Part shown: piece by piece, positions 30,452 to 55,418 of the stretch
Position numbering within the stretch: position 1 is the first letter of the stretch
How the letters are laid out: every line of letters begins with the position of its first letter
DNA from: Gammaproteobacteria bacterium
GTDB lineage: Bacteria; Pseudomonadota; Gammaproteobacteria; JBCCGL01
NCBI GenBank assembly: GCA_965277715.1
Contig: OZ255836.1
Coordinates: forward strand, 2,368,001-2,432,000
DNA length: 64,000 nt
Direction: 5' to 3'
Position numbers and translations under genes: made by a program
Notes under the pieces: generated by a model
The model's database searches: none
Told to the model about the DNA's origin: nothing
Seen by the model: the letters and a program-made list of their open reading frames with translations, nothing else

Positions 30452-30845
30452 GGGTGGTCTGGTTAGTACACTATCTACATTATATTGTCGGGTTCAGCGC
30501 AACAAATTCATTTTACACGAAGGGTTATCCCACAAGCGTACCAGAACTGCGTTGTTTTTACTCACCATAGCACCACTATGATTGCGCAAAAACGCCTTGC
30601 TCTACCACGCTTGTGGGCCAACTGAACCTGTCAATAGAAGGTAGACGGTGTACTAGCTTATAGAGGATCAGCATAAGCCCTTTACCGATGGGAATGTCAA
30701 GAAAGCGTGCCAGGTGGTTTATCGTTTCTGTCTTAATATCTTATTCATCAGGTAGCCAGTCGAATGAAAGGGATAGACTCTTTCATTCACAATACACATC
30801 CAGGCCGGTTTTCGATAGCCAGTATCTACTGGCTATTAACGATAA

Positions 30846-30869
30846 TGTGTATATACTTTCATATACACA
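30846..30869. promoter_or_regulatory. Inverted repeat, likely VapBC operator
   Basis: TGTGTATAT-N6-ATATACACA directly upstream of vapB. Confidence 0.6.
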
Positions 30870-30888
30870 AAAAACACACCAAGCCTTA

Positions 30889-31125
30889 ATGCAAAATACT
30901 ACTGCAAAAGTCTTCAACAGCGGCAATAGTCAGGCTGTTCGCCTACCTAAGGCATTTCGGCTGGATACCGACGAGGTATTTATCCGCAAAGTGGGCAATC
31001 AATTGATCTTGACACCCAAAAAGGACTGTTGGCAGGGCTTTACCGATGGCTTTACTGGTTTCAGTGAAGATTTTTCCACCTATGCAGAATTACCCGAAGA
31101 TACGCCCCGGAGGCGTTTCGATTGA
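30889..31125 (+). CDS. vapB: VapB antitoxin (AbrB fold)
   Basis: TAKVFNSGNSQAVRLPKAFR. Confidence 0.92.
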   Translation: MQNTTAKVFNSGNSQAVRLPKAFRLDTDEVFIRKVGNQLILTPKKDCWQGFTDGFTGFSEDFSTYAELPEDTPRRRFD

Positions 31126-31532
31126 TCCGTTATATGCTGGATACCAACGCCTGTATTGGTGTCATTAACGGCGCGATTCCATCATTACGCAAACGATTAC
31201 TCAATCACCGCCCCAGTGACCTTAGCATTTCTCAAATTGTATATTTCGAACTGGAATTTGGCATCTGTCGATCAAAACAGCCTCAACGCAACCGGCAAAA
31301 TCTGATTCATTTTCTACAGTATCTGCAAATAGCGAACTGGTCAGATACACAATCGCGGGAAGCTGCGGCAATACGTTGCGAGCTGGCGGAAAAAGGCACG
31401 CCTATAGGACACTACGATACCCTTATCGCAGCGCATGCACGCTCATTAAACACAGTATTGGTTACACACAATGTTCCTGAGTTTTCCAGAGTTGAAGGCC
31501 TGGCACTGGAAGACTGGGAAATCGGTGGCTAA
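31122..31532 (+). CDS. vapC: VapC PIN-domain toxin
   Basis: YMLDTN, EL.FG, PIG.YD.LIAAHA, LVTHN..EF.RV. Confidence 0.93.
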   Translation: MIRYMLDTNACIGVINGAIPSLRKRLLNHRPSDLSISQIVYFELEFGICRSKQPQRNRQNLIHFLQYLQIANWSDTQSREAAAIRCELAEKGTPIGHYDTLIAAHARSLNTVLVTHNVPEFSRVEGLALEDWEIGG

Positions 31533-31607
31533 TCAAACGCTGCTCTACCGGATCAACCCCATAAGCTCCATTAGGCAACCAGGTCCGTACGGCACAATAA
31601 TCAGGTA

Positions 31608-32819
31608 TCAACCGAGTTGCGTTGTCATTACCGTGTACATTTTTTCCGCCACAAGATCAAAATCCGGGTATCGTTGCCGAAGCTTATCCAACAGCGCCAG
31701 GTTGGCGGCAATCCCTTCTGCCACCTCTTCTTCGGCTTGATCCAATAGGGCTTCAGTCAATACACAGTGGCTACGACCAAATCGGCGTAACACCTTGCGT
31801 TTAGGCCACCGTTTAGAGCCTGTGAGGCTGAGCGCCATGATATCCGCCGGGATATAAGGCACAGTGCTCACTACATCAAATACCGGCGACAATTGACGGA
31901 CAGTGGCGGGCAACTCCCCCAGGCGGAAGCCCGTCAGGGTTTTATAGATCACACCAATATTTTTAAGGTGTGCATCACCATTGCGTAAACGCACATTGAG
32001 TAGCGTCAGCTTGTAAAAATCATAGAGCGACTGCGAGCGGTGCTCCGGGGAAATAAACTGTGTAATCGTATTGGCGCAGCTTTCAATGGAAGCATCGTAT
32101 TTTTGCCGTGTGCCCTTCCCCTGCAGTACACAAAAATCCTCAAAGCCTAAGCGCCCGTCGTCGTCGGCAATATCAAAGCGCTTGCTGACCAACAACCGCG
32201 CATTATCACTCAAGTGAAATTTGGCCACGTTCAAACCGGCGCTTTTGGCAATACTGAGGCAAACAAATTCGTTACACGCTAGGTGGGGATATTCCGGCCC
32301 CCAGCTTTTAACCAAATAGTGTTGCGTCGGCAGGCTGATATGGGTTTTCAGTTCCAGTAAAATCTTGGGTTGCACACCGGCCACTCCGGAGTTTTTCGCG
32401 TATTGTGCCAACAATGTATCGAATAAATTGGCATCCAGCTCAGACAACAGCCCGCCCAGCGTTAGCGGGGCCACACTGCGGGCATCCAGACCCTGCCCTG
32501 TCAACGTATAGGCCAACCGACCGATTTGGTGCGCCCCTAAAATAGCCAGCAAAGACAAGTCATCACTACCGTAACGCTTGGTGGTCATCCGTTCCAGCGC
32601 CTCCCGCAACGCGCCTTCTGGCAGGTTCATTTGAAATACGGGGTGTAAATCATCATAGGTATAACTTTCAACACGCAGCGGCATGGTCAGAGACAAAGCC
32701 TCATTTGCCTGATGTTGATAACTCAAAATGTGCCGACCGGCTTCCCGGCTTAATCGGCTATTTAAAGCATATTCCTGCTGCTTTGGCCCCTGCCTGAGGT
32801 ATACGTCTAAAGTGGACAT
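31608..32819 (-). CDS. hipA: HipA-family kinase toxin
   Basis: MNLPEG, SGVAGVQPK, KRFD, FEDF, NGDAHLKN, LSPVFD. Confidence 0.9.
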   Translation of the reverse strand: MSTLDVYLRQGPKQQEYALNSRLSREAGRHILSYQHQANEALSLTMPLRVESYTYDDLHPVFQMNLPEGALREALERMTTKRYGSDDLSLLAILGAHQIGRLAYTLTGQGLDARSVAPLTLGGLLSELDANLFDTLLAQYAKNSGVAGVQPKILLELKTHISLPTQHYLVKSWGPEYPHLACNEFVCLSIAKSAGLNVAKFHLSDNARLLVSKRFDIADDDGRLGFEDFCVLQGKGTRQKYDASIESCANTITQFISPEHRSQSLYDFYKLTLLNVRLRNGDAHLKNIGVIYKTLTGFRLGELPATVRQLSPVFDVVSTVPYIPADIMALSLTGSKRWPKRKVLRRFGRSHCVLTEALLDQAEEEVAEGIAANLALLDKLRQRYPDFDLVAEKMYTVMTTQLG

Positions 32820-32827
32820 AGCGGGGG

Positions 32828-33061
32828 CTAACGCTGTTCCCGCAAGTCATCCAATGTCGGCAGCCCGGCGTTTACAACCGTCAGGCGCTTACCCAGCAGG
32901 GATAAAATGCGCTCCACCTTGCGAATACCGATATCGGCATAGTCATTCCGTTCCAGAGCGCCAACCGTGGTGCGATCCAAGTTGGCAAACCCGGCAAGCT
33001 GCCGCTGCGTCCAGCCCTTTTGTTTACGCAGCTGTCTTACGGTTTCACTGATATTTTGCAT
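32828..33061 (-). CDS. hipB: HipB-like XRE antitoxin
   Basis: HTH_3 (LRKQKGWTQRQLA) immediately upstream of hipA. Confidence 0.85.
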   Translation of the reverse strand: MQNISETVRQLRKQKGWTQRQLAGFANLDRTTVGALERNDYADIGIRKVERILSLLGKRLTVVNAGLPTLDDLREQR

Positions 33062-33351
33062 AAAAAGATAGATATATTCATCTAAAATAAATACTCAGGA
33101 GTCTATCGGGTTTAGGCGCTCGTAGCGAGGGAAAGACTGGTTCGAGTCATTTTTTACGCACTATTGAGGAGAATAGTGGTTCTATTTGCGGACATTGCTC
33201 CGCAATAATACGGGTGAAAATAACTCGGACTTTGGCCCATCGTGGCAAATTTTCATATCTTACCCATGCTTTATTCTCTTTAACGCAAATGGCACTATCT
33301 GCATGGTTTGAGTAGCTGGTACATATTTGACCCATCGCGTACTATCGCACC

Positions 33352-34269
33352 ATGCAAATCGCCAACCCAATCTACGATGTCGTCTTCAAGTACCTGATGG
33401 CCGACGAGCGCGCCGCCAAGCTGATTATTGGTGAAATCATCGGTATGGACGTCACCGACATTGCCCTGCAACCGCAAGAGCACCTGGCCAACCTGCCTGA
33501 AAAAAACCTCACCGTCTACCGGCTCGATTTTTCTGCCAGGGTTAAAACCCGCGATGGACAGTTCAAACAAGTCATTATTGAAATCCAGAAAGCCAAATAC
33601 ACCAGCGATATTATGCGTTTCCGGCGCTACCTGGGGCAGCAGTACAGCGATGAAAAAAATGTCCACGCGACTGTTTCGGCCACGGGGCACAGCACATATC
33701 AGGCGCTGCCGATTATTACCATCTACTTTTTGGGCCATACGCTCAACCACTGCACAGCATCCGTTATCAAAGTAGGCCGAATCTATACCGATGCCATTAC
33801 CGGCGAAACACTGGTCGACAAAGAAGCCTTTATCGAAAGCCTGACCCACGACAGCTATGTGGTACAAATTCCCTACCTGAAAGCCCAACGCCGCAACGAC
33901 CTGGAGAAACTACTGGAAATATTCGACCAGGACCTACAGGTGGAGAACAGACACAGGCTGGTGATTGATGAGACGCTGTTTCCAAAGAAATACCACGTAT
34001 TGATTAGGCGTCTGCAGGCGGCGATTAGCGAACCAGAGATAATTGACACCATGCAAATAGAAGACGAGATATTGCTGGAACTGCAAAACAAGGAACGCGA
34101 GATCGAGGCAAAAGAACAACTGGTTGAAGAACAAAGCAAAGCCCTTGAGGAGAAAGACCAGGCACTTGAGAGGAAAGACCAGATCGTCAGGGAACAAGGG
34201 GAAGCACTTGAAGAAAAAGACAAATTAATCGACGAACTAAAAAGCCAACTCAACCGATTATCTGAATAA
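33352..34269 (+). CDS. Rpn/PD-(D/E)XK nuclease family protein with coiled-coil tail
   Basis: NPIYDVVFKYL, RLDF, IIEIQK, RFRRYLG; C-terminal heptads (EEKDQAL). Confidence 0.85.
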   Translation: MQIANPIYDVVFKYLMADERAAKLIIGEIIGMDVTDIALQPQEHLANLPEKNLTVYRLDFSARVKTRDGQFKQVIIEIQKAKYTSDIMRFRRYLGQQYSDEKNVHATVSATGHSTYQALPIITIYFLGHTLNHCTASVIKVGRIYTDAITGETLVDKEAFIESLTHDSYVVQIPYLKAQRRNDLEKLLEIFDQDLQVENRHRLVIDETLFPKKYHVLIRRLQAAISEPEIIDTMQIEDEILLELQNKEREIEAKEQLVEEQSKALEEKDQALERKDQIVREQGEALEEKDKLIDELKSQLNRLSE

Positions 34270-34309
34270 ATTGCAGAGAAAAAGCAAGCAAATATCATCT
34301 TGAGCGTTT

Positions 34310-34393
34310 AACCTAAATTCCGCAGTTGAATCGTAGCGAGGGCGTCTAAGGTGCTGAAGATGAAGTGTTTTTACCAGAGTTTTAGCAATCCTG
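34310..34393. mobile_element. MITE family A half copy (TIR to central palindrome)
   Basis: Near-identical to the reverse complement of 5352-5435. Confidence 0.85.
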
Positions 34394-34411
34394 ATTGGTG
34401 ATGAGCAATTT

Positions 34412-34754
34412 TTACACTCCTCCAGGTGCGCCAAGGGCTTGTGCAGACTTTCGTGAGGCAACTGCGTTTTCTAGAATGATACAGGGTTGACCGGCAGCAG
34501 CGCGAAACACATGTGCAACAGGAATCTCGCGCCCGCGCATCATCGCGCTGTCAGGCGGCGCCCAGCGGCGAAACAAATAAGGATAGTCACATTGGTGTAG
34601 CAATAGACAAGTCTGGCACTCGGTTTGCGGTGCAACGCATACGCGCTCACACAGCGCACGCGCAAACACGCTGTACCACAAAACCCCAGGAAATACAGGG
34701 TATTCGATGGGGTCCAGCGAAGCGGAATCGGTACTCGGCTAAAGTAAGGTGCAT
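34412..34754 (-). pseudogene. cas6: Cas6 endoribonuclease remnant (frameshifted and truncated)
   Basis: MHLTLAEYRFRF, then shifted frame W..VFARAL...VC....C..CLL...C.Y.YLF typical of Cys-rich Cas6 N-termini; no G-rich C-terminal loop. Confidence 0.72.
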
Positions 34755-35165
34755 GTTTTGATGGTATACATAAAGCTGGTATGGGTCGGCAATAAAAAAA
34801 TAAGACAAAAATAAAATTTAAGCTATAGTTATATAGTTATAGGTAAAATTACATTATTGGTATCTACTAACTAGATCTAAAAATACCCTTATTGCCAATA
34901 CGTTACGGGCTATTGTCAAAATTTATAAAAAATTTAATGCCTGGTGAGAAAGTTATGCTGTGGCTGCGTTAACACAGAAAAATATATTCATCACCTTATT
35001 AGCAATAATAAATGTCTTACTGAGCGCCTAAACCCGACAGGCTCATAGCCCCAAGATGCATCATTGTTGAAATAGGAAAATAATTGAACGAAATAAATGC
35101 GGTAATATGGTCATTCACTAAAAATCATTCGCAATACTAACAACAGATTTTAAAAGGAGATTGCC

Positions 35166-36455
35166 GTGCAAAAAATATCGGCCACCTACGAAATAGTTAC
35201 ACCTATGTTTATAGGCGATGCCAATCAGGAAGCGACAGGTATTTCTGCCGCTGCCGTTAAGGGTGCGCTGCGGTTTTGGTGGCGTGCTTTGAATTGGGGG
35301 AGCATTAGGAATAACTGTAACTCAGATGAAGAAGCCCTTTGTAAGCTGCACAAACGAGAGGGAGTGCTTTTTGGTAGAAGCTCGAAAATACCAGAAGAGA
35401 ATGGAAAGGAGATAGGTGGGCAGGGGAAGTTCATACTCAGAGTAAAGAGTCAGAATCAAAAGGGTTATATTGAATTAAGCACAGAGAAACTAAATAGTCA
35501 CTTTCCCCTAAGTAAAACACCCTGGATAACTTACCTTCTCGGCATGGGACTAATGGAATATAACAAGAAAGATAGAGACAACCGCTATACCAGAAGCGCC
35601 CTTTCACCAGAGAAAGAGAGTGGTTTATCAGAATTCACGGTTGAGCTGATTGGAAAAGAATTGGATTCTCTCAAACCCGCACTCGAAGCATGGGGCATGC
35701 TGGGCGGGCTTGGCAGCCGTAATAGACATGGACTCGGCTCAGTCACCTTAAAAAAACTGGACGGTGTAGACGCACCCAATACTAGAGAGCAATATATAGG
35801 TAAACTTAAAAAAATAGTCTCTGAAACAAAAAAAACAATTAAAGACCCTCCCTTTACTGCATTTAGCGGAGGTATGAGGCTAAGTGTCTCACCTACAGAA
35901 GGTCGCGACTGGTTATCGTTAAACAACCTGGCTAAAATTATGCAGTTGTACAGAGGCTGGGGGTATAAAGGAAATAATACAATCCATAAAATTAATAATA
36001 CTAAAGTTGATCCAGATGCTCATACTCTAAAAAATAGCGATCACTGTTTATTGATGCGCATGGAGCGCAGCCCTCACTCTGTGTCTTCGCTACCAGCAAG
36101 TGCTGTTTTTGGCTTGCCTAGAAGCTATGTAATCTCTTCACGTAGCGCGAAAATAAAACTGGAACCTTCTGCACGCACCTCCAAAGGAAAAGAGGATACA
36201 ACCAACAAACGCTCTCGTAGAGCCTCACCATTATTTATTCATGCACACAAATTGGGAGATGGAAGTTTCGTTGTAACGCAATTATTTCTGCCATCTCTGT
36301 TTTTGCCCACAGGCGATGAAGTGAAACTAGAACATGAAATAAACAAGCACTTCATTAATAAAGCTACTCTATCGCCTCTTGATTCTACGCAATGGCAAGT
36401 CATTACAGAATATTTAGATCTTAACGATTTCAATGCGTGGGATAACGTTATATGA
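35166..36455 (+). CDS. cmr1: Type III-B CRISPR RAMP Cmr1
   Basis: IVTPMFIG, VKGALRFWWRA, LGGLGSRNRHGLG, FGLP, RRASPL. Confidence 0.92.
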   Translation: MQKISATYEIVTPMFIGDANQEATGISAAAVKGALRFWWRALNWGSIRNNCNSDEEALCKLHKREGVLFGRSSKIPEENGKEIGGQGKFILRVKSQNQKGYIELSTEKLNSHFPLSKTPWITYLLGMGLMEYNKKDRDNRYTRSALSPEKESGLSEFTVELIGKELDSLKPALEAWGMLGGLGSRNRHGLGSVTLKKLDGVDAPNTREQYIGKLKKIVSETKKTIKDPPFTAFSGGMRLSVSPTEGRDWLSLNNLAKIMQLYRGWGYKGNNTIHKINNTKVDPDAHTLKNSDHCLLMRMERSPHSVSSLPASAVFGLPRSYVISSRSAKIKLEPSARTSKGKEDTTNKRSRRASPLFIHAHKLGDGSFVVTQLFLPSLFLPTGDEVKLEHEINKHFINKATLSPLDSTQWQVITEYLDLNDFNAWDNVI

Positions 36456-38422
36456 ATAATGAAGCGTATTTCCACTTCACCCTAGGCCCCGTCCAAAGCT
36501 TCATATCCCAGGCGCGTCGCGCACGCGATTTTTGGGCCGGTTCATTCTTACTTTCCTGGCTGTCCGGCGTCGCTATGCAGGAAGTCATTGCTCAGAATCA
36601 CGGCAAAATCGACACCATTCTGTATCCATTGGCAAACCAGAATTTCCTCGATTACTTACAAGGCAAAGACCAGGGCGAAAAGCCCCAACAGGGTTGCATT
36701 CCCAATCGATTTAAAGCCCGCGTCGGACAGGGTTTTCGTCCTGAGGCGGTCGCCGATGCAGTCAATACCGCCTGGCACGGACTCGCAGAAAAAATCTTTA
36801 GTGAAGATATCGCCAACATATCTGTGGAAAATATAAAGCGCTCGAAAAAAATATGGGATAGACAGGTTGAGCATTTTTGGGAGGTCAATTGGGCGATAAC
36901 CGCTTCACCCGAAGGTGACGACCCTTTGAGTCAGCGCAAATATTGGCGCTCACACTACCCCTCAGCAGAAGGTGGGGTGAAATGCATGATGATCGATGGC
37001 TTACAGGAACTCTCCGGGGAGCCACGTCCGATAAAGGAACGCCAAGACAAATTCTGGAACGCCGTTTTGCAAAACGGTAAGCCAGGCATAAAAACCGATA
37101 TACGCACCGGGGAACGTTTGTGCGCCATCGCGTTTATCAAGCGGCGGTTTTCCCGATGCTGTCACTTTCAAAAGCTGGAAGTGCCCATGTCTATATCGAT
37201 GCAATCCAGTTGGTCCTTGCAAGGGTGGGAACTGGATTCGCCTCGACCTTCTGTCTCGTATATGGCAGCGGTGCATTGGCTAGAGCATCTTGTCGAGCAG
37301 GCCGGTAAAAGTAGTGACATCGCAAACTTGCTTACCGATTTTTACAATGCTACCGGCAAGCTGACCAATCAACATAACGAATACGACAATAACATTCACT
37401 GTATTCAGACAGCGCTGGAAAAGAATCCACATATCGACGAAGAATGGTTCGCACGAGACGGTAATATGTTTTTTTCCAGCACGCTGGAAAGCGACTATGT
37501 ACTCGATGATACAAAACAAAATCACGCCATAGCCGCCAGCGAGAAACTGAGGGTATTGCAGCGCAAACTTAACCGCAAAGCCAGCCCGTTTTACGCTGTG
37601 CTGGTAATGGACGGTGATAACCTTGGCGTGCAGCTACGCGATAGCCATAACGCCCAAATTATCGCAAAGGCGCTGGATACATTCACCCAGAACGTACAAA
37701 AAGTAGTAAAGGCATCCAATGGATTTTTAATCTACGCGGGTGGCGACGATGTGCTGGCTATTCTCCCTCTGGAGGATGCCATTCCCTGTGCGTTAGAGCT
37801 GCGAAAGTGTTATATGGGTGCCTTCGATGCCACATCATTAAGCCAGAAGCAATCAATTTCCGCTGCGATCTGCTACCCCTATATCAAAACCCCTCTAACC
37901 AGTGCACTCGCGCAGGCACACACACTTTTGGATGACATCGCCAAGGAGCGCACCGGGCGTAACGCCATCGCTATACAAGTCATCAAGCCAGGCGGTAAGG
38001 GCCCATGCTGGTCGATGCCCTGGCAACGCGCAGTGACCGAAGCGAACGATACACTCGTGTTGGATGCGCTCGCTCAAGATCTCGCCAGCAACGACATTGA
38101 ACGCCGACAATTCAGTGGACGTTTTTTGCACAAGCTCAGTACGTACTTTAACGTACTCACCTCGGAGGATGACGGCAAAGAAGCGTTTACCAGGGAATCC
38201 ATCAACAATTTATTAATCGCTGAATATCTGTCATCCGGTGCTTGCGAACATATCCCCAAGGCAGACAGGCAAACACACGCCAAAAAAGTGGTGGCCCACC
38301 TACTCACGCAGTGCTACCCGATGCGTTCCAAACCAAATGGCGGGGGCTTTGAAGCGGCGGGGCCGCCTTCATCTGACGCCGCGCTGCTGCTGCGTTTTCT
38401 CGCCCAAAAAGGAGTCGAATAA
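36452..38422 (+). CDS. cas10: Cas10/Cmr2 without HD domain, GGDD cyclase motif intact
   Basis: LGPVQSFISQARR.RDFWAGS, C..C zinc site, YAVLVMDGDNLG, IYAGGDDVLA. Confidence 0.93.
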   Translation: MNNEAYFHFTLGPVQSFISQARRARDFWAGSFLLSWLSGVAMQEVIAQNHGKIDTILYPLANQNFLDYLQGKDQGEKPQQGCIPNRFKARVGQGFRPEAVADAVNTAWHGLAEKIFSEDIANISVENIKRSKKIWDRQVEHFWEVNWAITASPEGDDPLSQRKYWRSHYPSAEGGVKCMMIDGLQELSGEPRPIKERQDKFWNAVLQNGKPGIKTDIRTGERLCAIAFIKRRFSRCCHFQKLEVPMSISMQSSWSLQGWELDSPRPSVSYMAAVHWLEHLVEQAGKSSDIANLLTDFYNATGKLTNQHNEYDNNIHCIQTALEKNPHIDEEWFARDGNMFFSSTLESDYVLDDTKQNHAIAASEKLRVLQRKLNRKASPFYAVLVMDGDNLGVQLRDSHNAQIIAKALDTFTQNVQKVVKASNGFLIYAGGDDVLAILPLEDAIPCALELRKCYMGAFDATSLSQKQSISAAICYPYIKTPLTSALAQAHTLLDDIAKERTGRNAIAIQVIKPGGKGPCWSMPWQRAVTEANDTLVLDALAQDLASNDIERRQFSGRFLHKLSTYFNVLTSEDDGKEAFTRESINNLLIAEYLSSGACEHIPKADRQTHAKKVVAHLLTQCYPMRSKPNGGGFEAAGPPSSDAALLLRFLAQKGVE

Positions 38423-39609
38423 TGGCATTCACCTGTCGCTTTACCCCTATCGATACCTGGTTTTTTAAAGAATCACGACCAATGGAAAGTATCGGCGACG
38501 CCGAGCTTAGCAGTGTTTTTCCGCCACCTGCGCGTACTTTGATCGGTGCAATTCGCGCCGCTATCGGTGCGCATAACGGTATCGACTGGCACGACAAAAA
38601 ACACAAACTTATCGACCAAATTGGCGACAACCTGTCATTTGGGCAAATTCGCCTGGAAGGGCCATGGGTCAACTATCCAGGTGACAACAAACGCCCGCCG
38701 CAACGTCTGTTCGCCGCACCTTACAACCTGCTCCGCCATACACCGGAGGGCTCTGTCTCCCGCCTGACTATCGGCACGCCAGTACACTGTGACCTTGGCA
38801 AGGTACGTTTGCCTCGCGCACCAAGCGGCGCTAAGCCCGTACGTGAACGCTGGATTACTCAAGAGGGATTGCAAACTGTATTGAATGGCAATACCCCGCG
38901 ATCAGAGGATCTTATCGACTGCACCCACCTCTATCACCAAGAATCACGGCTAGGCATAGCGCGTGACAATTACAAACGCACCGTCGAGCGCAACCTGCTC
39001 TACCAAACCCGTCATTTGCGCCTCAAGCCCAGTGTTTCGATTGATCTCGATATTAACGGCATCGATCAGTCCCTATTGCCTGACTCTGAAAACAGGCTGC
39101 TACGGCTGGGAGGAGAAGGCCGCATGGCAGCCTACGAATGCCCAAACACAACGAACGCACGCCTCAGCTCACCCACCCCACCTAACGATGCAAAAGGTGT
39201 AATCCTGGTGTTGCTCAGCAACGCTAATGCTCCTGTCGATGGCAATACGCCCACGCCACTACCCGGCTTCACATGCACCAAAGAAAACCACTGTACCGTT
39301 TGGCGCGGTTCGATAAACGGTGTGGAACTAACCCTGCATACCGCCGCTTGTGCCCACTCAGTACGCGAGGGTGGCTGGGATCTCGTCGAAAACGCCCCCC
39401 GGCCCGCAGAGAGTCTTATCCCTGCGGGCAGTGTGTTTTACTGCACTGTCGATAACGGCGATATCCCCTACGCTATAAAAAAACTGCATAACGCTCAATT
39501 ACTGGACAGTGATGCCTCTACTCCCACTGATGCCACCAACCTCACCCTGGGTCGCGGCTTACTGGCCGCTGGCATTTGGCCCGCTAACGAATTTACCGAA
39601 GGAGACTAA
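38422..39609 (+). CDS. cmr3: Cmr3
   Basis: PIDTWFF.E.RP, PPPART..GA, E.RLGI, LGGEGR, GGWD, PAGSV. Confidence 0.92.
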   Translation: MAFTCRFTPIDTWFFKESRPMESIGDAELSSVFPPPARTLIGAIRAAIGAHNGIDWHDKKHKLIDQIGDNLSFGQIRLEGPWVNYPGDNKRPPQRLFAAPYNLLRHTPEGSVSRLTIGTPVHCDLGKVRLPRAPSGAKPVRERWITQEGLQTVLNGNTPRSEDLIDCTHLYHQESRLGIARDNYKRTVERNLLYQTRHLRLKPSVSIDLDINGIDQSLLPDSENRLLRLGGEGRMAAYECPNTTNARLSSPTPPNDAKGVILVLLSNANAPVDGNTPTPLPGFTCTKENHCTVWRGSINGVELTLHTAACAHSVREGGWDLVENAPRPAESLIPAGSVFYCTVDNGDIPYAIKKLHNAQLLDSDASTPTDATNLTLGRGLLAAGIWPANEFTEGD

Positions 39610-39612
39610 CCC

Positions 39613-40620
39613 ATGTATCAAGCCCGCACCCTGCTGGGACTCCATGCACAAACCTCTATTCACGCCGGTAGCGGCTGGCAAACCGGCGCTATCGACCTGC
39701 CGATTCAACGCGAAGGCCACAATGGCTGGCCATGTGTCTTCGGCTCTTCGGTCAAGGGCGCACTGCGCAATCGCGCCGAACAAGAGAAGATGCAAAATTC
39801 ACTCGCAAATAACGAACTCACCCCTGAAAAAGCCCACCAACAGGCACGGGAAGCGCCAGATATAGTAGCGGTCTTTGGCCCACCGACTAATAGGGCATCC
39901 GACCACGCCGGTGCGCTTATCGTTAGCGATGCGCGCTTATTGTTGTTTCCGGTACGCTCGCTGACCTCACAGTTCAAATGGGTTACCTGCCCCAGCGCAT
40001 TACAGCGTTTTAAAGAGGATCACAAACGCCTATTCGGAAAAGACATCGAACTAAAAATACCAGAGTGTGAAGGGGAGGAACAAGCGATTGCGCACTGTAT
40101 AAACCCTTCCGATCAAACATCAACGAAAAAGGAAAAACTGTTTCTGGAAGAGTATTTATTTAATCTGGAATACACGGACATTGAAAAAACACTCATCGAA
40201 CAATTAGCCGCGCTTATGTGCCAACCAGAAGCTAAAAAGGCACTACGCAGGCAACTGGTTATCATCAGTGATGATAACTTCACCCATCTGGTAAACCATG
40301 CCACCCCGGTAAATGCGCATATCGCCATAGCGTCCGACACCAAAACGGCAAAGGATGGCGCACTGTGGTACGAGGAGACTCTGCCACCAGAAGCACTGCT
40401 TTATACCTGCCTAGCGGCCAGCAATGCCCGTACCCCAAAATCGCAAAACACAGAAAACACTGTAAGCCAGTCCGCCCAATGCATTATGAACACAGTCCTT
40501 GGCTGGTTTGGCGATGGTAAGCATTGGCTTCAAATTGGCGCTAATGAAACTGTTGGCATGGGGTGGTGTGCAGTGCAGCCATTACGAGACGTTGCAGACG
40601 ATACAAAGGAGGATGGCTAA
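39613..40620 (+). CDS. cmr4: Cmr4 (target RNA nuclease)
   Basis: SIHAGSG, IDLPIQRE (catalytic Asp), SSVKGALR, ALWYEE.LP, QIGANETVG.G. Confidence 0.94.
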   Translation: MYQARTLLGLHAQTSIHAGSGWQTGAIDLPIQREGHNGWPCVFGSSVKGALRNRAEQEKMQNSLANNELTPEKAHQQAREAPDIVAVFGPPTNRASDHAGALIVSDARLLLFPVRSLTSQFKWVTCPSALQRFKEDHKRLFGKDIELKIPECEGEEQAIAHCINPSDQTSTKKEKLFLEEYLFNLEYTDIEKTLIEQLAALMCQPEAKKALRRQLVIISDDNFTHLVNHATPVNAHIAIASDTKTAKDGALWYEETLPPEALLYTCLAASNARTPKSQNTENTVSQSAQCIMNTVLGWFGDGKHWLQIGANETVGMGWCAVQPLRDVADDTKEDG

Positions 40621-41029
40621 TATGCAAACCATTCAACAACGACGGGCAAAATACGCGCTAGACCAGGTGCAGAACGCCAAATCAAACAGTGGTATTGATA
40701 ACAAAGAATACAAAAGCTACGCCAATGCGCTACCGGCGATGATACACACTAACGGATTGGGACAAGCCACTGCATTTTACAAGTCAAAGGGAGGCACCCA
40801 TAAAGCACTCTATAATTTACTGTCTGGTTGGTTGTGTAAAGACGCACAAATTTACAGCGAATGCAGTGACCTGATGGAAGGCATTACCGGCGGTAATATG
40901 CGCGATTACCGCCTGGCTCAGGCCGAAGCAGTAGCTTTAATGGACTGGGCAAAGAAATTCGCCAACGCTTATATGAGCGAGCAAGAGCAAGAAGATAAAC
41001 AGGAGAGCGCAGATGTTGCCCCTGTATAG
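40613..41029 (+). CDS. cmr5: Cmr5 small subunit
   Basis: QRRAKYA, LPAMI..NGLGQ..AF, W.KKFA. Confidence 0.9.
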   Translation: MANMQTIQQRRAKYALDQVQNAKSNSGIDNKEYKSYANALPAMIHTNGLGQATAFYKSKGGTHKALYNLLSGWLCKDAQIYSECSDLMEGITGGNMRDYRLAQAEAVALMDWAKKFANAYMSEQEQEDKQESADVAPV

Positions 41030-42167
41030 CGAGGCGCAACCCCATGGGCAAGAGCTGGATCGCGATACTTCGGCGAATATGGGGCTGTGGTTTGATCGAT
41101 TCTTTAATGGCTATAACCACAACTTCAGTGAAATTAGCAAACCCACAGATCTCAAAGAGGTAAAAAAACAATGGATCCACACTCTGGATCGACATGCAGG
41201 CAAAGAAGAACAACTAGAGAGTTTTGCTAAAAACCAATGTCGCCTCATTCACTCACTGGGCGGTCTTTGTCAAGAATATCGAACCGAAGGGCGCTTCATT
41301 ACTGGCATGGGCAATTCGCACCCGATAGAAAATGGCCTAAGTTGGCACTTCACCCTGGGCGTGCCCTACCTGCCTGGTTCAGCCGTCAAAGGGTTAGTGC
41401 GAGCTTGGGTTGAGCAATGGCAAGATGAAATCGAAGAGAGTAAAAAACGGCAACTGCTCACATGGTTTGGCAGTGAAGATAAAGAACCAGGCCCTGAGCA
41501 AAACCAACAAGCCGGTGAAATTATTTTTTACGATGCGATTCCCATAAATCCGGTAAAACTGCATATCGACATAATGACGCCACATATGGGGAAATGGTAT
41601 GAAAAAGGCGGTGATATCACGAACGTTGATGATTCACCCGAAGCCGTCCCTGCCGATTGGCACGACCCGGTTCCGATTAAGTTTTTATCGATGGACAAAG
41701 GGGCGGAATTTTTATTTAGCATTGCACCAAGGCAACCTAAGAGTTGGTCGGTAGATTCGTTAACCGAAGTTATACAAGTGCTCAATATGGCATTGGAATG
41801 GCTCGGAGCTGGGGCGAAAACAGCCCTTGGCTATGGGCAAATGGTACAGACTGGGAAAAGCAGTATAGAAGACAAGGTCAAAAACGAAGATGAGAAAGAA
41901 CACACAAGAAAGTTATCGCCCGAAGGGTTGGTTTTACATGGCCTCAAAAAAGAACTGGAGCGAACAAAGAAATTAAACGATGCTAGAGCTAACACTTCGC
42001 TTCGCCAAAGGACATTGGATATTGCATCAAAAGCCAAGAGTTGGCCTCAAGTGCCAGAGAGACAAGAATTAGCCAATCTAATCGTGGAAGTATACGAATT
42101 CATAGGTTGGGGGAAGACTAAAAAAAAGAGAAAAGTACATTGCATAATTAAGGAGTTAAGAAATTAA
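41013..42167 (+). CDS. cmr6: Cmr6
   Basis: TGMGN.HP.ENG, GVPYLPGSAVKG, DIMTPH, DPVPI.F, GAGAKTA.GYG. Confidence 0.93.
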   Translation: MLPLYSEAQPHGQELDRDTSANMGLWFDRFFNGYNHNFSEISKPTDLKEVKKQWIHTLDRHAGKEEQLESFAKNQCRLIHSLGGLCQEYRTEGRFITGMGNSHPIENGLSWHFTLGVPYLPGSAVKGLVRAWVEQWQDEIEESKKRQLLTWFGSEDKEPGPEQNQQAGEIIFYDAIPINPVKLHIDIMTPHMGKWYEKGGDITNVDDSPEAVPADWHDPVPIKFLSMDKGAEFLFSIAPRQPKSWSVDSLTEVIQVLNMALEWLGAGAKTALGYGQMVQTGKSSIEDKVKNEDEKEHTRKLSPEGLVLHGLKKELERTKKLNDARANTSLRQRTLDIASKAKSWPQVPERQELANLIVEVYEFIGWGKTKKKRKVHCIIKELRN

Positions 42168-42402
42168 TTATGCAAACAATATCCTCTTTTTTCAGTACAT
42201 CTGCTTTTGTAATTATAGGATGAATAAGCACACTATTACTGTTAATACGCCCGATAAAACTATTAATAATAATTTCAGGCTTATTACTATTCATTTATAA
42301 AATGGGATTGAGTTACCGGAAAAAAATATAGCGATAAACGTTTACCCGTGACTGCATTTCTTCTTAACGGGACAGCAGTGTTAATAACTACATAATTTTA
42401 TC

Positions 42403-43410
42403 TTACATAATTAAACCGGCGTGTAATACAGAAATTCCACTCCCTGATAGTGCAATGTATACCATATCTCCACTAGACAGATTTCGTTTTACCTCAGCTA
42501 AGGATAGGTTAACAGGTAACGTAGCTGAAGTAATATTTCCCAATCTCGGGTATGTGCATGTCATTTTCTTATCAACAATGTCAAATTGCTCAGACAGGAT
42601 TTTAAATGCCTTGCTACCAACTTGGTGTGTCACCATACAATCGATACTTTCACTTTCCCAATCAAGGCTGCTGATAGTTTGCTTATAAAGCTTTTTATGT
42701 AGATCAATAGTCAAGGAGCAAATGCGATTCATTATCATTTGCCCATCAACACCACTTTCGCACATTTTGTAGTAACAGAGATCAGCGTGTCTTCCCAAGG
42801 ATGTGGAACTAAATTTTATAAACCCTGCGCCATTGAATTTAGACCCCATCAACACCGCACCTCCAGCATCTCCGACACTTAGCATACCAACTTTGCGTTT
42901 GAAGGTATATTTACAGCGACACTCCCGCATTTGCCTAATAACTGCCTTACTAACCACACTCGGACGCTCTCCCGTGCATACCAAAGCATATCGCACCGAG
43001 CCGTTGGCGATCATATCATTAGCTATCTGCATCCCTGTAGCAAAGCCCAGGCAAGCGTTCGAGACATCGAAGCATATCCCCTTCAACCCAAGTTTGTGTT
43101 GAATGTAGTGAGCGGTTGACGGTTCTGCGTAGTCTCCCTCGATCCCACAGAATATTATCAGATCGATATAATCAGGGTTGACTCCTGAGTCGTGCAGCGC
43201 CATTTCGCTGGCAGCGATCGCCAGATCGCTCGGTTTTTCATCACTGGCTGAATGGCGCATTTCCAAAATGCCCATTGTGTTCTCTACTATATTGTTTTCC
43301 AGGCCGAAACGGTGAGCGCCGATCTCCTCCACCATCTCTTTCGGTCTAACGCGGGTTTCAGGCAGATATTTGCCGACAGATACGATTCTTGATGACCCAA
43401 GTTGTTGCAT
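42403..43410 (-). CDS. 3-oxoacyl-ACP synthase III family, OleA-like condensing enzyme
   Basis: EPSTA, DVSNACLGF (Cys), HQVG, GNI; AGAGG RBS before ATG 43410. Confidence 0.8.
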   Translation of the reverse strand: MQQLGSSRIVSVGKYLPETRVRPKEMVEEIGAHRFGLENNIVENTMGILEMRHSASDEKPSDLAIAASEMALHDSGVNPDYIDLIIFCGIEGDYAEPSTAHYIQHKLGLKGICFDVSNACLGFATGMQIANDMIANGSVRYALVCTGERPSVVSKAVIRQMRECRCKYTFKRKVGMLSVGDAGGAVLMGSKFNGAGFIKFSSTSLGRHADLCYYKMCESGVDGQMIMNRICSLTIDLHKKLYKQTISSLDWESESIDCMVTHQVGSKAFKILSEQFDIVDKKMTCTYPRLGNITSATLPVNLSLAEVKRNLSSGDMVYIALSGSGISVLHAGLIM

Positions 43411-43739
43411 TTTTACACCTCTTTCACTTTTGCAATTGATATGAAATACCGATTGCACTCCTGAAATTTGGTAAACACCAGTCATTTCGTCTCTGAAATC
43501 GCTACTAACAGGGTAAGGATGATCAGTGCATGCGTGCGAGAATAAAAATAGCAAGAGGAGAAAGGGCATCTGCCCTTTTAGGTCTTAAGCCGTTGCCTTT
43601 CGTTGGAAGGAAAAGCCGACTCAAAAACGGGGTTATACGATTTTCTACCGATGCCTATCCGGTGGCACATCGGCGTTATATCGGTATTGGAGGATGGGTG
43701 GGGCCGGTATTTCCGCCCATCCAGGGGCCTTGGAGCCTG

Positions 43740-43826
43740 CTACAGGTGAAGCTGAAATGCGGGTAAAAGCGCTTTAGATTCAGCGCATTAGGTGGTCGCA
43801 GTAGATTCAACTGCGGAATTTAGGTT
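43740..43826. mobile_element. MITE family A half copy (central palindrome to TIR)
   Basis: Similar to the reverse complement of 5258-5344; ends GATTCAACTGCGGAATTTAGGTT. Confidence 0.82.
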
Positions 43827-43940
43827 CAATATAGGTATGGCCTACCTCATTTCTCCGCTCTGGCAGGTAGGAGAATACCGCGAGCTATAGTTCCAGTTGA
43901 TAAATATTGCCTTCGCTATCGCGTGCTTTTATATCGACGA

Positions 43941-45062
43941 TTAAGTGATGTGTTCAAGCTGTTTAACAAGGTACTGGGCAAAGTCGTAGTTGGGTCGCTC
44001 AAGGTGGCAGAGGTGGCCAGGCCGGGCCAGTGGGGCATTGGCACCGCGAAATACCGCCTCGGTGCCACGCCGGTCTTCACGGTTTACTTCATCGAGCAGG
44101 GTTTTTAATGCGACGATGGACTGCTGCGCCGCCGGGTCGTCGACAAATTCTGGGGATAAACCACCGGCAAAGGTCATGTGTACCTGGCCGGTGCCCCGTG
44201 GTTGCAGGCATAGATACCAAAAATACCCCGGTGTCAGTGTGATTAGGTGGCTGGGATAGAGCGCGATCAACGCGGTGGTTTGCCGCCACTCACCCTGTAG
44301 CCGCCGGTTATCCGGGTGGGCATTGCCAATGGTCAGTGAGGCTTCTTTTTTTATCCAATGGATGTTGTAGTGTGGTTCGCCAGGCGGGCAGTCCATATCG
44401 TCGATGTGCGAGTGCCCGCCCACGGTAGCTTTGTGCAGTACCGGCAGGTGGTAGCTCTCCATAAAATTCTCGGCGAGGATTTTCCAGTTGGTGTGCCACA
44501 CGTGTTCTTCACGAAAGGTTTCTGTGTAGTGCTGAACGGCATAGGGACGGATTTTTTCCTCCAGTGTCGCCAGTTGCTCAGCAACCGGCCTGGCGTGCTG
44601 GTTTAGCGTTAGGTAGATCCACCCCTGCCAAACCTCGATACGCAGCTCAGGCAATGTGTAGTCACACGGCTTAAAGGCCGGGCTGTGTTTCATTTGTGGC
44701 CCACCCAGCAATTGCCCTTGCAGGTTGTAGTGCCAGCCGTGGTACGGGCAGACTATTTTTTCACAGTGGCCAACACCCTCCAGCAATACCGACAAGCGGT
44801 GCAAGCACACATTGGAATAGGCGCGTAGGGTGTTGGTGGTGTCGCGCAGCACGACAACCGGCTGATTGGCTATTTGTGCCGTCAGGTAATCACCGGTATT
44901 TGGCACGGTGGATTCACGGCCAACGCACAGCCATTCCCGGGAAAAGATATGTTGTTGTTCGAGTGCGAGAAAGTCCTCGCAGGTATAGACCTCTGGCGGC
45001 ATGGTGCGCGCCTGCTCGAAAGGCAGGGCGCAGCTCGCACGCAGTGTGTGTAAGGCCGACAC
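43941..45062 (-). CDS. Rieske non-heme iron oxygenase alpha subunit
   Basis: NVCLHR...CPYHGW Rieske motif; NWK...ENF.E.YH....H; start GTG 45062 inferred. Confidence 0.9.
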   Translation of the reverse strand: MSALHTLRASCALPFEQARTMPPEVYTCEDFLALEQQHIFSREWLCVGRESTVPNTGDYLTAQIANQPVVVLRDTTNTLRAYSNVCLHRLSVLLEGVGHCEKIVCPYHGWHYNLQGQLLGGPQMKHSPAFKPCDYTLPELRIEVWQGWIYLTLNQHARPVAEQLATLEEKIRPYAVQHYTETFREEHVWHTNWKILAENFMESYHLPVLHKATVGGHSHIDDMDCPPGEPHYNIHWIKKEASLTIGNAHPDNRRLQGEWRQTTALIALYPSHLITLTPGYFWYLCLQPRGTGQVHMTFAGGLSPEFVDDPAAQQSIVALKTLLDEVNREDRRGTEAVFRGANAPLARPGHLCHLERPNYDFAQYLVKQLEHIT

Positions 45063-45076
45063 GGGCGGGGTGCCAA

Positions 45077-45499
45077 CTACCGGGCGGCGTCTGGAATCAT
45101 CGCCGTGGCGTCGACTTCCACCAGCCACTCCGGGCGTGCCAGTTTGGAAATCACCACGCCGGTCGACACCGGAAACACGCCTTTTAACCATTTGCCAATC
45201 ACCCGGTACACCGGTTCACGGTAGATGGGGTCGACGATGTAGATCACCAGCTTGCAGATATGGTTCAGCTCACTGCCCGCCTCTTCCAGCAACAGGGCGA
45301 TATTGGCCATGGCTTTTTCGGTTTGCGCTTCGATATCCCCCACGCCAATATTTTCCCGGGTGTCCAGATCCTGGCCAATCTGCCCGCGCAAGAACACCAT
45401 CGTGCCCCTGGCGACGACTGCCTGGCACAGATCATTGTCCAGATTTTGCTCGGGGTAGGTTTCTTTGGTATTGAATTTTCTGATGCGTTGGTGTGCCAT
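45077..45499 (-). CDS. RidA family protein
   Basis: FLRGQIG, AQT..AM.NI..LL..AG, P.STG, LVEVDA. Confidence 0.9.
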   Translation of the reverse strand: MAHQRIRKFNTKETYPEQNLDNDLCQAVVARGTMVFLRGQIGQDLDTRENIGVGDIEAQTEKAMANIALLLEEAGSELNHICKLVIYIVDPIYREPVYRVIGKWLKGVFPVSTGVVISKLARPEWLVEVDATAMIPDAAR

Positions 45500-45501
45500 G
45501 T

Positions 45502-46953
45502 TTATTTCTGCCCGTACACACTGTCCGATAAATCGGCGGCATTTTTAACAAAATCCAGCGGGCCATCCCAACCAAAATTGCGGTACACCGCTGCCAGGTG
45601 CGCAAACGGGGGCGACTGGGCAAACAGATGGAAGGTCAGGCGGTGCCCGGCGTAGCCGGAGTTGAGCAGGTCGCGGGCAAACGCCAGCAGTTTGCGCCGG
45701 TCTGCGGATTGCCAGCTTTCGTTGATTGAATAGTATTTATCCAGCCATTTACCGGATTCCTCTCCTTCAAAGGAGGCGATGTCCGGGGTGACACAAATTT
45801 GCCCACCGCACAATTCACGGGCCAGGTGCATCATCGCGGGCAGGTTGGAGACGGCGTGCACACGGCCAGTCATCAGCATCGATTGATTCGGCATAAAAAA
45901 CCCACCGGGGCTGGTTTCACCAAGTGCTACAGCAGCGGTTAAGTGTGCATTGATGCCTTCGCGGTAGACGGCGAGCTGGGCGAGCTTTTCCTGCACGGCG
46001 GGTTGTTTTTCCAGGCCGGTTTGTTTGACGTTCCACAAGGCCGCGCCAATCATCATGTCGGCGTAGGTGATTAATCGCTGTACAAAGGGCATCGCCGAAT
46101 AGCGGTGCAGGGTGGTGCGGATAAAGGCGGCGGCGCGGGTGTGTTGGTAAAACAGCACGTCTTCCCACGGAACCAACACATCGTCGAGAATCATAATGGT
46201 GTCTACTTCGTCAAATTTGTTCGACAGCGGGTAATCCGCAGGTGAATTGACGCCGGCAAAACCGCCACGACAAATATGCTTAACGCCGGGGGCATTCATT
46301 TTGACGATACAGCCGAGCGCGTAATCAGAGATTGATGCATCCCCCCAATTGGCAATCGTCGGTTTTAAAAAGCCCTGATTGGAATAGGCGGCGGCTGTTT
46401 CGTATTTGGCACCACGGATAATAATGCCCGCACCGGTTTCCCGCACCACATGGGTGAGCATGTCGGGGTCTTGATCCTGCGGGCGCAGCGAGCGGTCACC
46501 TTTTGGGTCTGTATTGGCCGAGACATGAAACGGGTCATTTTCCACAGCCAGCTTAATGTGTTGGTTGATGTTTTTGGCAAAGCGCGGGTCGATCTCGTTG
46601 AGGATATCGGCACCGTCTGCCAGTGACCACATCTCACCCACGGTTTCATCACCGACACGCGTCACCACGCCGCCAATATCTTTCATCACGGTATCGACGG
46701 ATACGCGCTTATCGTGCCAGTGTTGTTGATTGCGCGGGATGCGGTTGCCGGTGGGAAAGCGCTCTCCCCCCTCTTCAAAGGTCATCACTGCCTGGGTTGC
46801 CGGGTCGTGTTGCATATCGTAGATACGCGCCCGCACGTCAATCAGTGGTTTGAATTTGGGGTGGGTGGTCACGTCATCGACGCGCTGACCATCCATATAC
46901 ACCTCGCGTCCGTCACGTAGGGACTCGCGGTATTCATCGCCGGTTCTAATCAT
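45502..46953 (-). CDS. 4-hydroxyphenylacetate 3-monooxygenase (HpaB)-family flavin monooxygenase
   Basis: RTG.EY.ESLRDGREVY..G..V.DVT.HP, DPKGDRS, GAK, PLS..FDE.D. Confidence 0.85.
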   Translation of the reverse strand: MIRTGDEYRESLRDGREVYMDGQRVDDVTTHPKFKPLIDVRARIYDMQHDPATQAVMTFEEGGERFPTGNRIPRNQQHWHDKRVSVDTVMKDIGGVVTRVGDETVGEMWSLADGADILNEIDPRFAKNINQHIKLAVENDPFHVSANTDPKGDRSLRPQDQDPDMLTHVVRETGAGIIIRGAKYETAAAYSNQGFLKPTIANWGDASISDYALGCIVKMNAPGVKHICRGGFAGVNSPADYPLSNKFDEVDTIMILDDVLVPWEDVLFYQHTRAAAFIRTTLHRYSAMPFVQRLITYADMMIGAALWNVKQTGLEKQPAVQEKLAQLAVYREGINAHLTAAVALGETSPGGFFMPNQSMLMTGRVHAVSNLPAMMHLARELCGGQICVTPDIASFEGEESGKWLDKYYSINESWQSADRRKLLAFARDLLNSGYAGHRLTFHLFAQSPPFAHLAAVYRNFGWDGPLDFVKNAADLSDSVYGQK

Positions 46954-47085
46954 ATTGACCTCTATTTTGTTGTTAAAACCCTATTCATTTGGAAGGGTCG
47001 TTCATCGACTGGCAAACCGGGATTTTTCGCTTTCCCAATAGATATGTAAAATAGTATTTTTTGTAATAGTAGATAGATTTTTATT

Positions 47086-47985
47086 ATGTTGTATACATTG
47101 CGTCAATTACAACACCTGGTGGCGATTGCCGACAGTGGCCGTATCTCGGCGGCCGCCAGAGAATTGCACCTTTCCCAACCGGCCCTGTCTGCCTCTTTGC
47201 AACAACTGGAAAGCGCCTGTGGCACCGATCTGTTTGTACGCCACAAGGCACGCGGGGTCAGCCTGACGAACAGCGGTCGCAATCTGGTTGTCGAGGCGCG
47301 TAAATTAATCACGCATGCACTGGAACTGGAAAATTATATCAGCCACCTGGATGACACTATCGATGGGCGTATCGAAATCGGTTGTTTCACCACCCTGGCC
47401 CCCTTGTGGATACCGCGTATGCTGGTGGCGTTGCGCAGCCGCTACCCCACGCTGGAAGTGGGTATTCACGAGGGTGACATCAGAGAATTGCAAGCGGCTA
47501 TCCTGGATGGGCGGATTGAAACGGCCTTGAGTTATGACATTGATATACCCGACAGCCTGCAATCGACGCCGCTGGAAAAAATGGAAACCTATGCGCTGTT
47601 GAGTAAACACCACCCACTGGCCGGGCACAGCCAACTCTCGCTGGCGCAACTGCGCAATGACCCGTTGGTGTTATTGGATTTACCGCATAGCCGCGAGTAT
47701 TTCCAATCGGTATTTGATGCAGTGGGGTTTTCGCCGCTGGTCGCCCATCGTACAGCCAGCTTTGAAATGGTACGGTGTATGGTTGCCAATGGGCATGGGT
47801 ATTCGGTGTTGAACCAAAAACTGGCTACGCCGATCAGTTATGACGGTGGGCAGTTGGTGATGAAGCCACTGACCGATAAATTACCGGCGCTCAATGTGGT
47901 TTTATTGTTTTTGCGTGAGACGCGTTTAACGCGGCGCACGCAGGCGGTGATTACATTTTGTCAGGCGTTTTATTGTGGGCAGTAA
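47086..47985 (+). CDS. LysR-family regulator, divergent from the catabolic operon
   Basis: TLRQL..., SQPALS...LE, LF.R. Confidence 0.95.
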   Translation: MLYTLRQLQHLVAIADSGRISAAARELHLSQPALSASLQQLESACGTDLFVRHKARGVSLTNSGRNLVVEARKLITHALELENYISHLDDTIDGRIEIGCFTTLAPLWIPRMLVALRSRYPTLEVGIHEGDIRELQAAILDGRIETALSYDIDIPDSLQSTPLEKMETYALLSKHHPLAGHSQLSLAQLRNDPLVLLDLPHSREYFQSVFDAVGFSPLVAHRTASFEMVRCMVANGHGYSVLNQKLATPISYDGGQLVMKPLTDKLPALNVVLLFLRETRLTRRTQAVITFCQAFYCGQ

Positions 47986-47995
47986 AAATTTCTCA

Positions 47996-52509: not shown

Positions 52510-52701
52510 TGCCATGTGATATCACATATCATTAGCTTATTAAGATCGTATTTACCATCAACTCACCTCCCTTTCCATTCAGATCAAAAAAACAACAGCT
52601 TGTTATTACCATTCTATAAGCCAATAAAAAAACCTCCGGTATACGAGGCTTTAACAAAAAATACTTTGTTTATACTAAATAACTAGCCTGACCCCTTTTC
52701 T
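52227..52701 (+). repeat. 475-bp direct repeat, copy 1
   Basis: Apparently identical to 56867-57341. Confidence 0.92.
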
Positions 52702-52869: not shown

Positions 52870-52909
52870 GTAAAAGAATTCGTATAGTGGCCAGGTAGTG
52901 TAGTGGTCA

Positions 52910-53560: not shown

Positions 53561-53561
53561 A

Positions 53562-55390: not shown

Positions 55391-55418
55391 CTCTTCTTTA
55401 CCCCCATACCCCTTATCA

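Follow-up and report, generated by a model that had tools for sequence, protein, structure and literature searches.

In a 64,000-nucleotide stretch of a gammaproteobacterial genome (assembly GCA_965277715.1, contig OZ255836.1, positions 2,368,001 to 2,432,000 of the forward strand; hereafter the window), a type III-B CRISPR operon, cmr1-cas10-cmr3-6, lies between two complementary halves of a palindromic MITE (miniature inverted-repeat transposable element), which together enclose ~9.3 kb. This arrangement is far beyond chance. Our best reading, held tentatively and at somewhat less than even confidence, is that illegitimate recombination severed a single copy of the MITE at the centre of its hairpin. 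The locus has the look of a scar, left where DNA broke and was deleted at repeats that form hairpins, rather than of a Cmr transposon.

The intact member of this MITE family, which we call A-type, lies on the minus strand at 5260-5434. It is small (175 nt) and non-coding, has inverted-repeat ends and forms a hairpin over its whole length. When 5258-5436 was searched against the window with BLAST, this near-perfect palindrome matched itself in reverse complement with 80.4% identity across 179 nt; as single-stranded DNA, it gave a fold of -68.6 kcal/mol (z = -18.3), with 0 of 200 shuffled sequences equally good. Read on the minus strand, it carries TTTA on either side (5256-5259 and 5435-5438). 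An initial annotation of the window, made from the sequence alone, had placed this copy at 5258-5435; the palindrome is real, and its limits become 5260-5434 under the 4-bp duplication rule described below. The same annotation had noticed halves of the element around the cmr genes in matching order and orientation, and arm-specific alignments on the plus strand bear it out. The A-type left arm (half 1; 34311-34393) is 95% identical to the intact copy, and BLAST gave the segment 34309-34393 an identity of 95.3% with one MITE arm (85 nt; E = 8e-35) and of only 77.4% with the other. The A-type right arm (half 2; 43740-43824) is 92% identical to the right arm of the intact MITE; in BLAST, 43751-43826 aligned across 76 nt with the complementary arm, at 92.1% (E = 3e-27), and reached 80.5% with the other. 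Local alignment carried half 2 back to the hairpin stem, CTACAGG, at 43740, with single-copy DNA before it, and position 94 of a MITE relative from Endobugula aligns to this same nucleotide. The outer ends of the split pair make up an inverted repeat of 26 nt, with 96% complementarity, and, by the 4-bp rule, are adjoined by the target-site copies TTTA on the left (34307-34310) and TTCA on the right (43825-43828), both read on the plus strand. Including a solo terminus of 23 nt (18061-18083, plus strand), the window holds one intact A-type copy and three partial pieces.

At the left junction, the segment first taken as the beginning of the cargo (34394-34475, plus strand) is actually the right arm of a second MITE family, B-type, fused to half 1 within both central loops and ending in a degenerate terminus, CTAGA. 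A search of 401 genomes identified 34390-34484 as a repeat present at 13 places in nine genomes, and the 12 places retrieved yielded 13 copies of B-type MITEs with 74-84% identity to the window repeat. These are ~163 nt long, have ends CCTAGAAACCGCAGTTGG related to those of the A-type and follow the same duplication rule. Full B-type copies can be aligned with the window segment 34311-34475 over its entire length; the left arm of this segment is A-type and its right arm B-type. The switch falls within the central loops (CCTG-TAGTGAT in A, CCTTATTGGTGAT in B), at short matches, CCT..GTGAT, common to both palindromes. Judged from these alignments, the left element is a full-length chimera in which the two MITE families meet, each at the centre of its hairpin. 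It is flanked by TTTA on the left and by ATGA on the right (34476-34479, plus strand), the latter being the 4-bp target copy that adjoins the B-type terminus, and the chimera was therefore not brought in by transposition as a single unit. Right after ATGA, the ten nucleotides TACAGGGTTG (34480-34489) match the start of the A right arm at nine positions and are also readable as cas6 codons.

Next to the chimera, cas6 survives on the minus strand as a pseudogene (34478-34738) that keeps only its N-terminal third and is cut off at the MITE. The remnant matched the PADLOC Cas6 profile (E = 8e-13) over positions 15-86 of 296 and has an upstream in-frame stop at 34739-34741. In a full HMMER search, 195 homologues reached E <=1e-3, with identities of 57-60% for the best of them; the fragment was not recognized by Pfam, and a word-index search gave no longer relatives. 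The type III-B set that follows on the plus strand is complete, comprising cmr1 (35166-36455), cas10/cmr2 (36452-38422), cmr3 (38422-39609), cmr4 (39613-40620), cmr5 (40613-41029, with an approximate start, the listed open reading frame beginning at 40499 with TTG) and cmr6 (41013-42167). All six frames are open and match Pfam and PADLOC models, in agreement with the initial gene calls for the operon and the cas6 remnant. Cas10 (656 residues) has GGDD at residue 430 and no HD dipeptide anywhere along its length. After cmr6 come an AT-rich spacer, a gene on the minus strand (42403-43569) and 170 nt of unique DNA leading to half 2. This gene, earlier called oleA-like, is present and is named here FabH/KAS-III-like, its scores falling under the NCBIfam cut-offs. 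The 64-kb window contained no CRISPR array or array-like repeat family and nothing at gathering score in Rfam (with one chance-level match for 32.9-35.3 kb), and a scan of the genes from 31.6 to 48 kb recognized none as encoding a CARF effector. To judge by the reading frames, the cmr genes are intact and cas6 is dead. With cas6 truncated and carrying a stop, and no array in the window, a working Cmr complex would have to draw on CRISPR RNAs (crRNAs) produced in other parts of the genome.

An assembly artefact was also considered. The MITE exists in many copies and interrupts short-read graphs, with loose ends at 34306/34307 and 43826, so a repeat-induced misjoin might have put the cmr contig between the halves of one MITE. 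Against this, contigs of other studies bridge both junctions: one from run X8 spans 34009-36676 with 0 differences, and contigs from run X3 cover 34228-34336 (0 differences) and 42812-43781 (5 differences), crossing the left and right junctions, respectively. The split-MITE structure is not a misassembly, and we consider an artefact of this sort extremely improbable.

Contigs also allowed a comparison between strains. Runs X1 and X3 are sponge metagenomes from different studies, and their strains share ~99% identity with the window in the flanks, one comparison giving 19 differences over 2,576 nt. Contigs from both runs cover the left flank, the junction between flank and half 1, the stretch 42381-43781 (which includes the KAS-III gene and its junction into half 2) and the right flank, with a depth of 0 over 35401-39600 and 40201-42000; here, depth 0 means no contig >=85% alike, and a more divergent cmr cassette would escape detection. 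The cmr-less X3 contigs rejoin the window at 42381, which is 22 nt past the KAS-III stop codon, and one of them carries 1,156 nt to the left of this point that have no place on window positions 30001-48000. Contigs from run X5 likewise break at 42412-42414, and depth in this run was 70 for the cmr genes and 69 for the right flank. The interval is thus not found or absent as a whole: the X1 and X3 strains keep both junctions and KAS-III without any cmr contig at this likeness, and it is therefore a mosaic rather than one unit. The cmr cassette (~34.5 to 42.38 kb) has its own history, while KAS-III and both MITE junctions are common to the strains. Using 19 kb of the window as query, we found no relative with synteny at the locus among 401 genomes from the order and 277 from the family of an Endobugula genome (G002), the best matches having 68-78% identity. 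The families of three further genomes (G062, two genomes; G106, seven; G392, 12) gave ~70% identity, and metagenome scans with the KAS-III protein and with Cas10 returned no relative.

No transposase with these ends occurs in the 64-kb window, but autonomous partners of the kind envisaged by the initial annotation were located in other genomes. One full element, in a complete gammaproteobacterial chromosome (L119, 1014-2707), has a frameshifted transposase and the flanks ATGA/ATGA; another, in a metagenome-assembled genome (MAG) of Endozoicomonadaceae (L126, 672-2367), encodes a transposase of 516 residues and has the flanks TTCA/TTCA. Full elements measure 1,692-1,696 bp and carry one DDE transposase of 516-520 residues, and the Endozoicomonadaceae MAG (G666) has five copies with open frames of 520-523 residues. 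The best NCBIfam model for the L126 transposase is IS1380 (NF033539; E = 4e-36, positions 26-417 of 419), although its 124.5 bits fall short of the curated cut-off of 180. Members of the IS1380 family (ISfinder) are ~1.7-2 kb long and duplicate 4-5 bp of target, and the full elements fit this description in both size and flanks. On this evidence, the parent element is IS1380-like, a distant relative rather than a certified member, and the window MITEs derive from such an insertion sequence.

Comparison of element flanks across these loci supplied the duplication rule. A script recognized 28 elements in 33 loci, with register shifts of 1 nt judged by eye; 4-bp flanks were identical in 20 elements and in four more after such a shift, while four elements did not fit. 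The MITE and insertion sequence ends read (A/T)CCTAAATTCCGCAGTTGAAT and the target duplication has the form WTNA, with the duplication followed by (A/T) and CCTA... on one side and preceded by ...TAGG on the other, as in the intact window copy with its TTTA on both sides. The 28-element comparison superseded a reading of the duplication as 3-bp TNA, which was dropped.

The family is multi-copy, with many joints and varied flanks in runs X1, X3 and X5 and termini numbering 102 in G666 and 35 in another genome, G668, compared with 0 for a reversed control pattern. The 20-nt end CCTAAATTCC(G/T)CAGTTGAAT occurs exactly in at least 53 stretches of public genomes. Among the matches listed, the records bearing this end include Endozoicomonadaceae, Sororendozoicomonas, Silicimonas, Nitrosomonas, Thiotrichaceae, Chitinivibrionales, Opitutus, Sulfuricella and others, and 51 of the 53 stretches match the window MITE only over ~20-29 nt of the end. 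An Endobugula locus (L032) contains a whole copy of the window MITE at 75% identity and a Cellvibrionaceae locus (L025) a shorter copy. In the Endobugula genome G002, there are 17 full copies and ~12 partial ones, the latter comprising two long pieces (positions 5-113 and 61-179, the second stopping where its contig ends) and ~10 solo termini that measure 22-38 nt; none of the ~12 is broken at the centre.

Several observations concern this IS1380-like superfamily as a whole (L001-L053 and the two full elements). Interiors vary by genome, MITE lengths range from 38 to ~230 nt and the identical 20-nt end appears, among the matches listed, in MAGs titled Alpha-, Beta- and Gammaproteobacteria, Chitinivibrionales and Opitutus. 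A complete gammaproteobacterial genome has the 38-nt form between hemD and hemX (L120, 1501-1546); this mini-element is hardly more than its two ends and is flanked by TTTA on each side. In Endobugula (L058, ~1677-1690), a B-type MITE starts right after the target copy of an A-like MITE, which makes this a tandem insertion at a single TTTA site. A MITE in an Endozoicomonadaceae MAG (L015, 4141-4464) adjoins a C-terminal protein fragment that we take to be TnpB-like from its zinc-ribbon CxxC...ERD motif. Pairs of ends that might have enclosed cargo turned out otherwise and were set aside: L015/L016 comprises two MITEs 1.5 kb apart beside the TnpB-like fragment, the G668 pair at 755004/765069 is a 38-nt mini-element and a solo end around hem and TonB genes, and the G666 pair at 968670/974200 is one whole and one partial MITE.

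How, then, did the split pair arise? Under the reading that we tentatively prefer, a single A-type MITE would have landed in the space that separates the PD-(D/E)XK-like gene from the Rieske gene and later broken at its hairpin centre, with illegitimate, transposase-independent recombination joining its left arm, loop to loop, to the B-type right arm abutting the truncated cas6, and its right arm to unique DNA upstream of the KAS-III-like gene. Both halves would share an origin in one copy, hairpin breakage and end joining would have made the joints, and the 9.3 kb between them would be a passive mosaic. This reading is favoured by arms that are complementary in type, order and orientation, and by a half 2 that begins exactly at the stem. 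Two independent breaks at the centre would be a coincidence, because no centre-broken partial was seen among the relatives examined. The fit of TACAGGGTTG to the start of the A right arm, the position of the A/B joint in the loops of both palindromes and the high stability of the palindrome point the same way. Movement as a unit is opposed by the unequal duplications, the broken gene at one end and the single-copy depth of cmr, and the parent insertion sequence has the same ends with equal duplications (ATGA in L119, TTCA in L126). Several points weigh on the other side. The outer duplications differ (TTTA and TTCA), while only four of the 28 intact relatives have unequal flanks. An alignment of Cas6 homologues suggests that cas6 coding may run through TACAGGGTTG to ATGA, with (E/Q)P in three of 12 homologues at the columns of the window QP, and C-V in the closest homologue where the window has C-I; chance may thus account for the nine-of-ten agreement with the A arm. 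In relatives, the centre does not stand out as a place of change: about one of five large indels among 10 aligned B-type copies is located there. Finally, the closest relatives found have ~70-78% DNA identity, and none supplied an allele with an empty site or an intact MITE.

The strongest competitor, which we rate as a realistic but somewhat less probable history, invokes two independent A-type copies and the ordinary decay of a resident CRISPR locus. Here a B-type MITE would have inserted in cas6 at ATGA, after which a deletion between the centre of an upstream A copy and that of the B copy removed the A right arm, the 3' two-thirds of cas6 (and perhaps an array) and the B left arm; half 2 would be a second A copy, at TTCA, whose left arm was lost separately. 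This history needs no extra assumption for the unequal duplications, either TTTA and TTCA around the pair or TTTA and ATGA around the chimera, and it agrees with a cas6 frame and homologue pattern that run up to ATGA. MITE insertions in cas genes are on record (PMC10359306), partial copies are frequent both in the window and in G002, and the cmr-less strains keep the junction between KAS-III and half 2. It must nevertheless suppose that half 2 happens to be the complementary arm, oriented alike and severed precisely where the stem begins, when G002 offers no centre-cut copy among its partials, and that the match of 34480-34489 to the A right arm is chance. In addition, the DNA upstream of 43740 contains neither a second MITE arm nor a second terminus and is single-copy in X3. 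The initial annotation had offered two independently truncated copies as its mundane alternative; the B-type MITE inside cas6 lends that idea new support, and the exact cut of half 2 and the G002 partials tell against it. Our ordering of these two histories reflects a rough estimate of likelihood rather than a computed one, and they are of similar weight.

A mobile unit, in contrast, seems improbable. A 9.5-kb MITE-bounded element with Cmr cargo, moved in trans by an IS1380-like transposase, would be consistent with the two intact, complementary 26-nt termini, the cognate transposases in other genomes such as G666, and MITE pairs flanking integrons that are described as mobilized units (PMC3934969; PMC10969869). 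Yet the 4-bp flanks are unequal, whereas 24 of the 28 intact relatives have identical ones when register-shifted cases are counted, and one end of the cargo is a truncated cas6 pseudogene. Depth over cmr in X5 equals that of the right flank, the junctions sit at the same site in cmr-less strains, the window has no transposase with these ends and no end pair enclosing cargo was seen in the places inspected (L015/L016, L120 and L121). The non-autonomous composite transposon carrying Cmr, as proposed initially, thus finds no support, with these duplications, the cas6 edge, the mosaic strains and the single-copy depth speaking against it. The accompanying suggestion that the central hairpin is a site of capture or insertion fares better in part: the A/B join lies in both loops and half 2 starts from the stem, but the behaviour is not general in the 10 B-type copies, and we rejected the centre as a general hotspot on their indel pattern. 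Also rejected was the birth of the MITE by deletion from this 9.5-kb unit, as pairing of its arms extends all the way to the loop and Endobugula has an element of like architecture with 75% identity.

The locus mainly illustrates the erosion of a CRISPR-Cas system by MITEs, with cas6 lost and no array, and it documents a cmr cassette that varies between strains ~99% alike in their flanks. If one MITE truly took up 9 kb at its hairpin, the locus would exemplify palindromic repeats that serve as entry points for defence genes. As a long shot, hairpin centres of IS1380-type MITEs could act as break-and-capture sites, with the 9.5-kb 'stuffed MITE' still mobile in trans, because both 26-nt ends survive, and spreading defence islands in sponge-associated bacteria; a true capture would then give MITEs a route to both seed and spread such islands. 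The IS1380-like superfamily of insertion sequences and MITEs may be of wider use; MAGs labelled with several phyla carry its 20-nt end unchanged, and its arms recombine into chimeras.

Just left of the locus are a HipA-like toxin kinase gene (31608-32819; Pfam HipA_C and Couple_hipA) and a gene of 305 residues (33352-34269). The latter, called rpn initially, resembles a 'PD-(D/E)XK nuclease family transposase' in a protein atlas (look-alike score 0.97), but has no NCBIfam match and no Pfam match below E 0.01, those found being at chance level. Its depth in X3 was ~14,000, compared with ~870 for single-copy flanks, which therefore indicates many paralogues, one of which abuts a truncated MITE arm (joint 34220/34372). 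A third repeat of ~100 nt lies at 33087-33188, and fragments of it are present at 5460-5490 and 35022-35044. It has TCGTAGCGAGGG in common with the A-type arm, reaches high depth in X1, X3 and X5 and recurs at 13 places in nine genomes of the order sample at ~72-84% identity. Another palindromic repeat of ~150 nt (30506-30654; CCCACAAGCGT...ACGCTTGTGGG) has elevated depth in X3 and X5, where it is also joined to MITE ends, and the X3 strain lacks 52 nt at 30497-30548. Farther to the right, 52227-57340 contains several long direct repeats, including 300 nt (100% and 98% identity) and a 151-nt repeat present three times, together with short motifs of the form ATAGTATACTTGACCCC.

Set beside known systems, the operon resembles that of Marinomonas mediterranea, whose type III-B Cmr complex is reported to use crRNAs of a co-resident system (PMC5576922): the window likewise has a full cmr1-cas10-cmr3-6 set without a working cas6 or its own array. 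It differs in that the window Cas10 lacks an HD motif and no CARF gene was recognized between 31.6 and 48 kb. The arrangement also recalls MITE-flanked integrons, in which the cargo lies between inverted MITE-derived ends, as with the 439-bp MITE of Acinetobacter; there, two whole MITEs and equal duplications argue for movement (PMC3934969; PMC10969869). The window cargo is also held between two inverted MITE-derived ends, but these are palindrome halves with unequal duplications and a broken gene at one edge. Entry of foreign DNA at a MITE hairpin has a parallel in IS1111 and QMITE2 of Coxiella, where a defined insertion sequence is described as recognizing the MITE palindrome (PMC10969869); unlike that case, the window joints show no recombinase or element end. 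Inactivation of cas genes by insertion sequences or MITEs has been reported as well (PMC10359306), and cas6 in the window was similarly destroyed at a MITE boundary. Here, however, only one side of the gene is left, so a deletion or capture came after any insertion. In these respects, the locus is a fresh instance of processes already in print.

The more original by-product is the MITE superfamily itself. Its parent resembles IS1380-family insertion sequences such as ISEcp1 in carrying one DDE transposase within 1.69 kb and making a short AT-rich duplication of 4 bp, and departs from them in a transposase score of 124.5 bits against a cut-off of 180. The ends of ISEcp1 also begin CCTAGATTC. 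A full-text search of main texts found no description of IS1380-linked MITEs of this kind. Like other MITEs derived from insertion sequences, those of the window keep only the parental ends; unlike the known ones, they form long perfect hairpins with exchangeable arms that give rise to chimeras, and they share an identical 20-nt end across MAGs labelled with several phyla.

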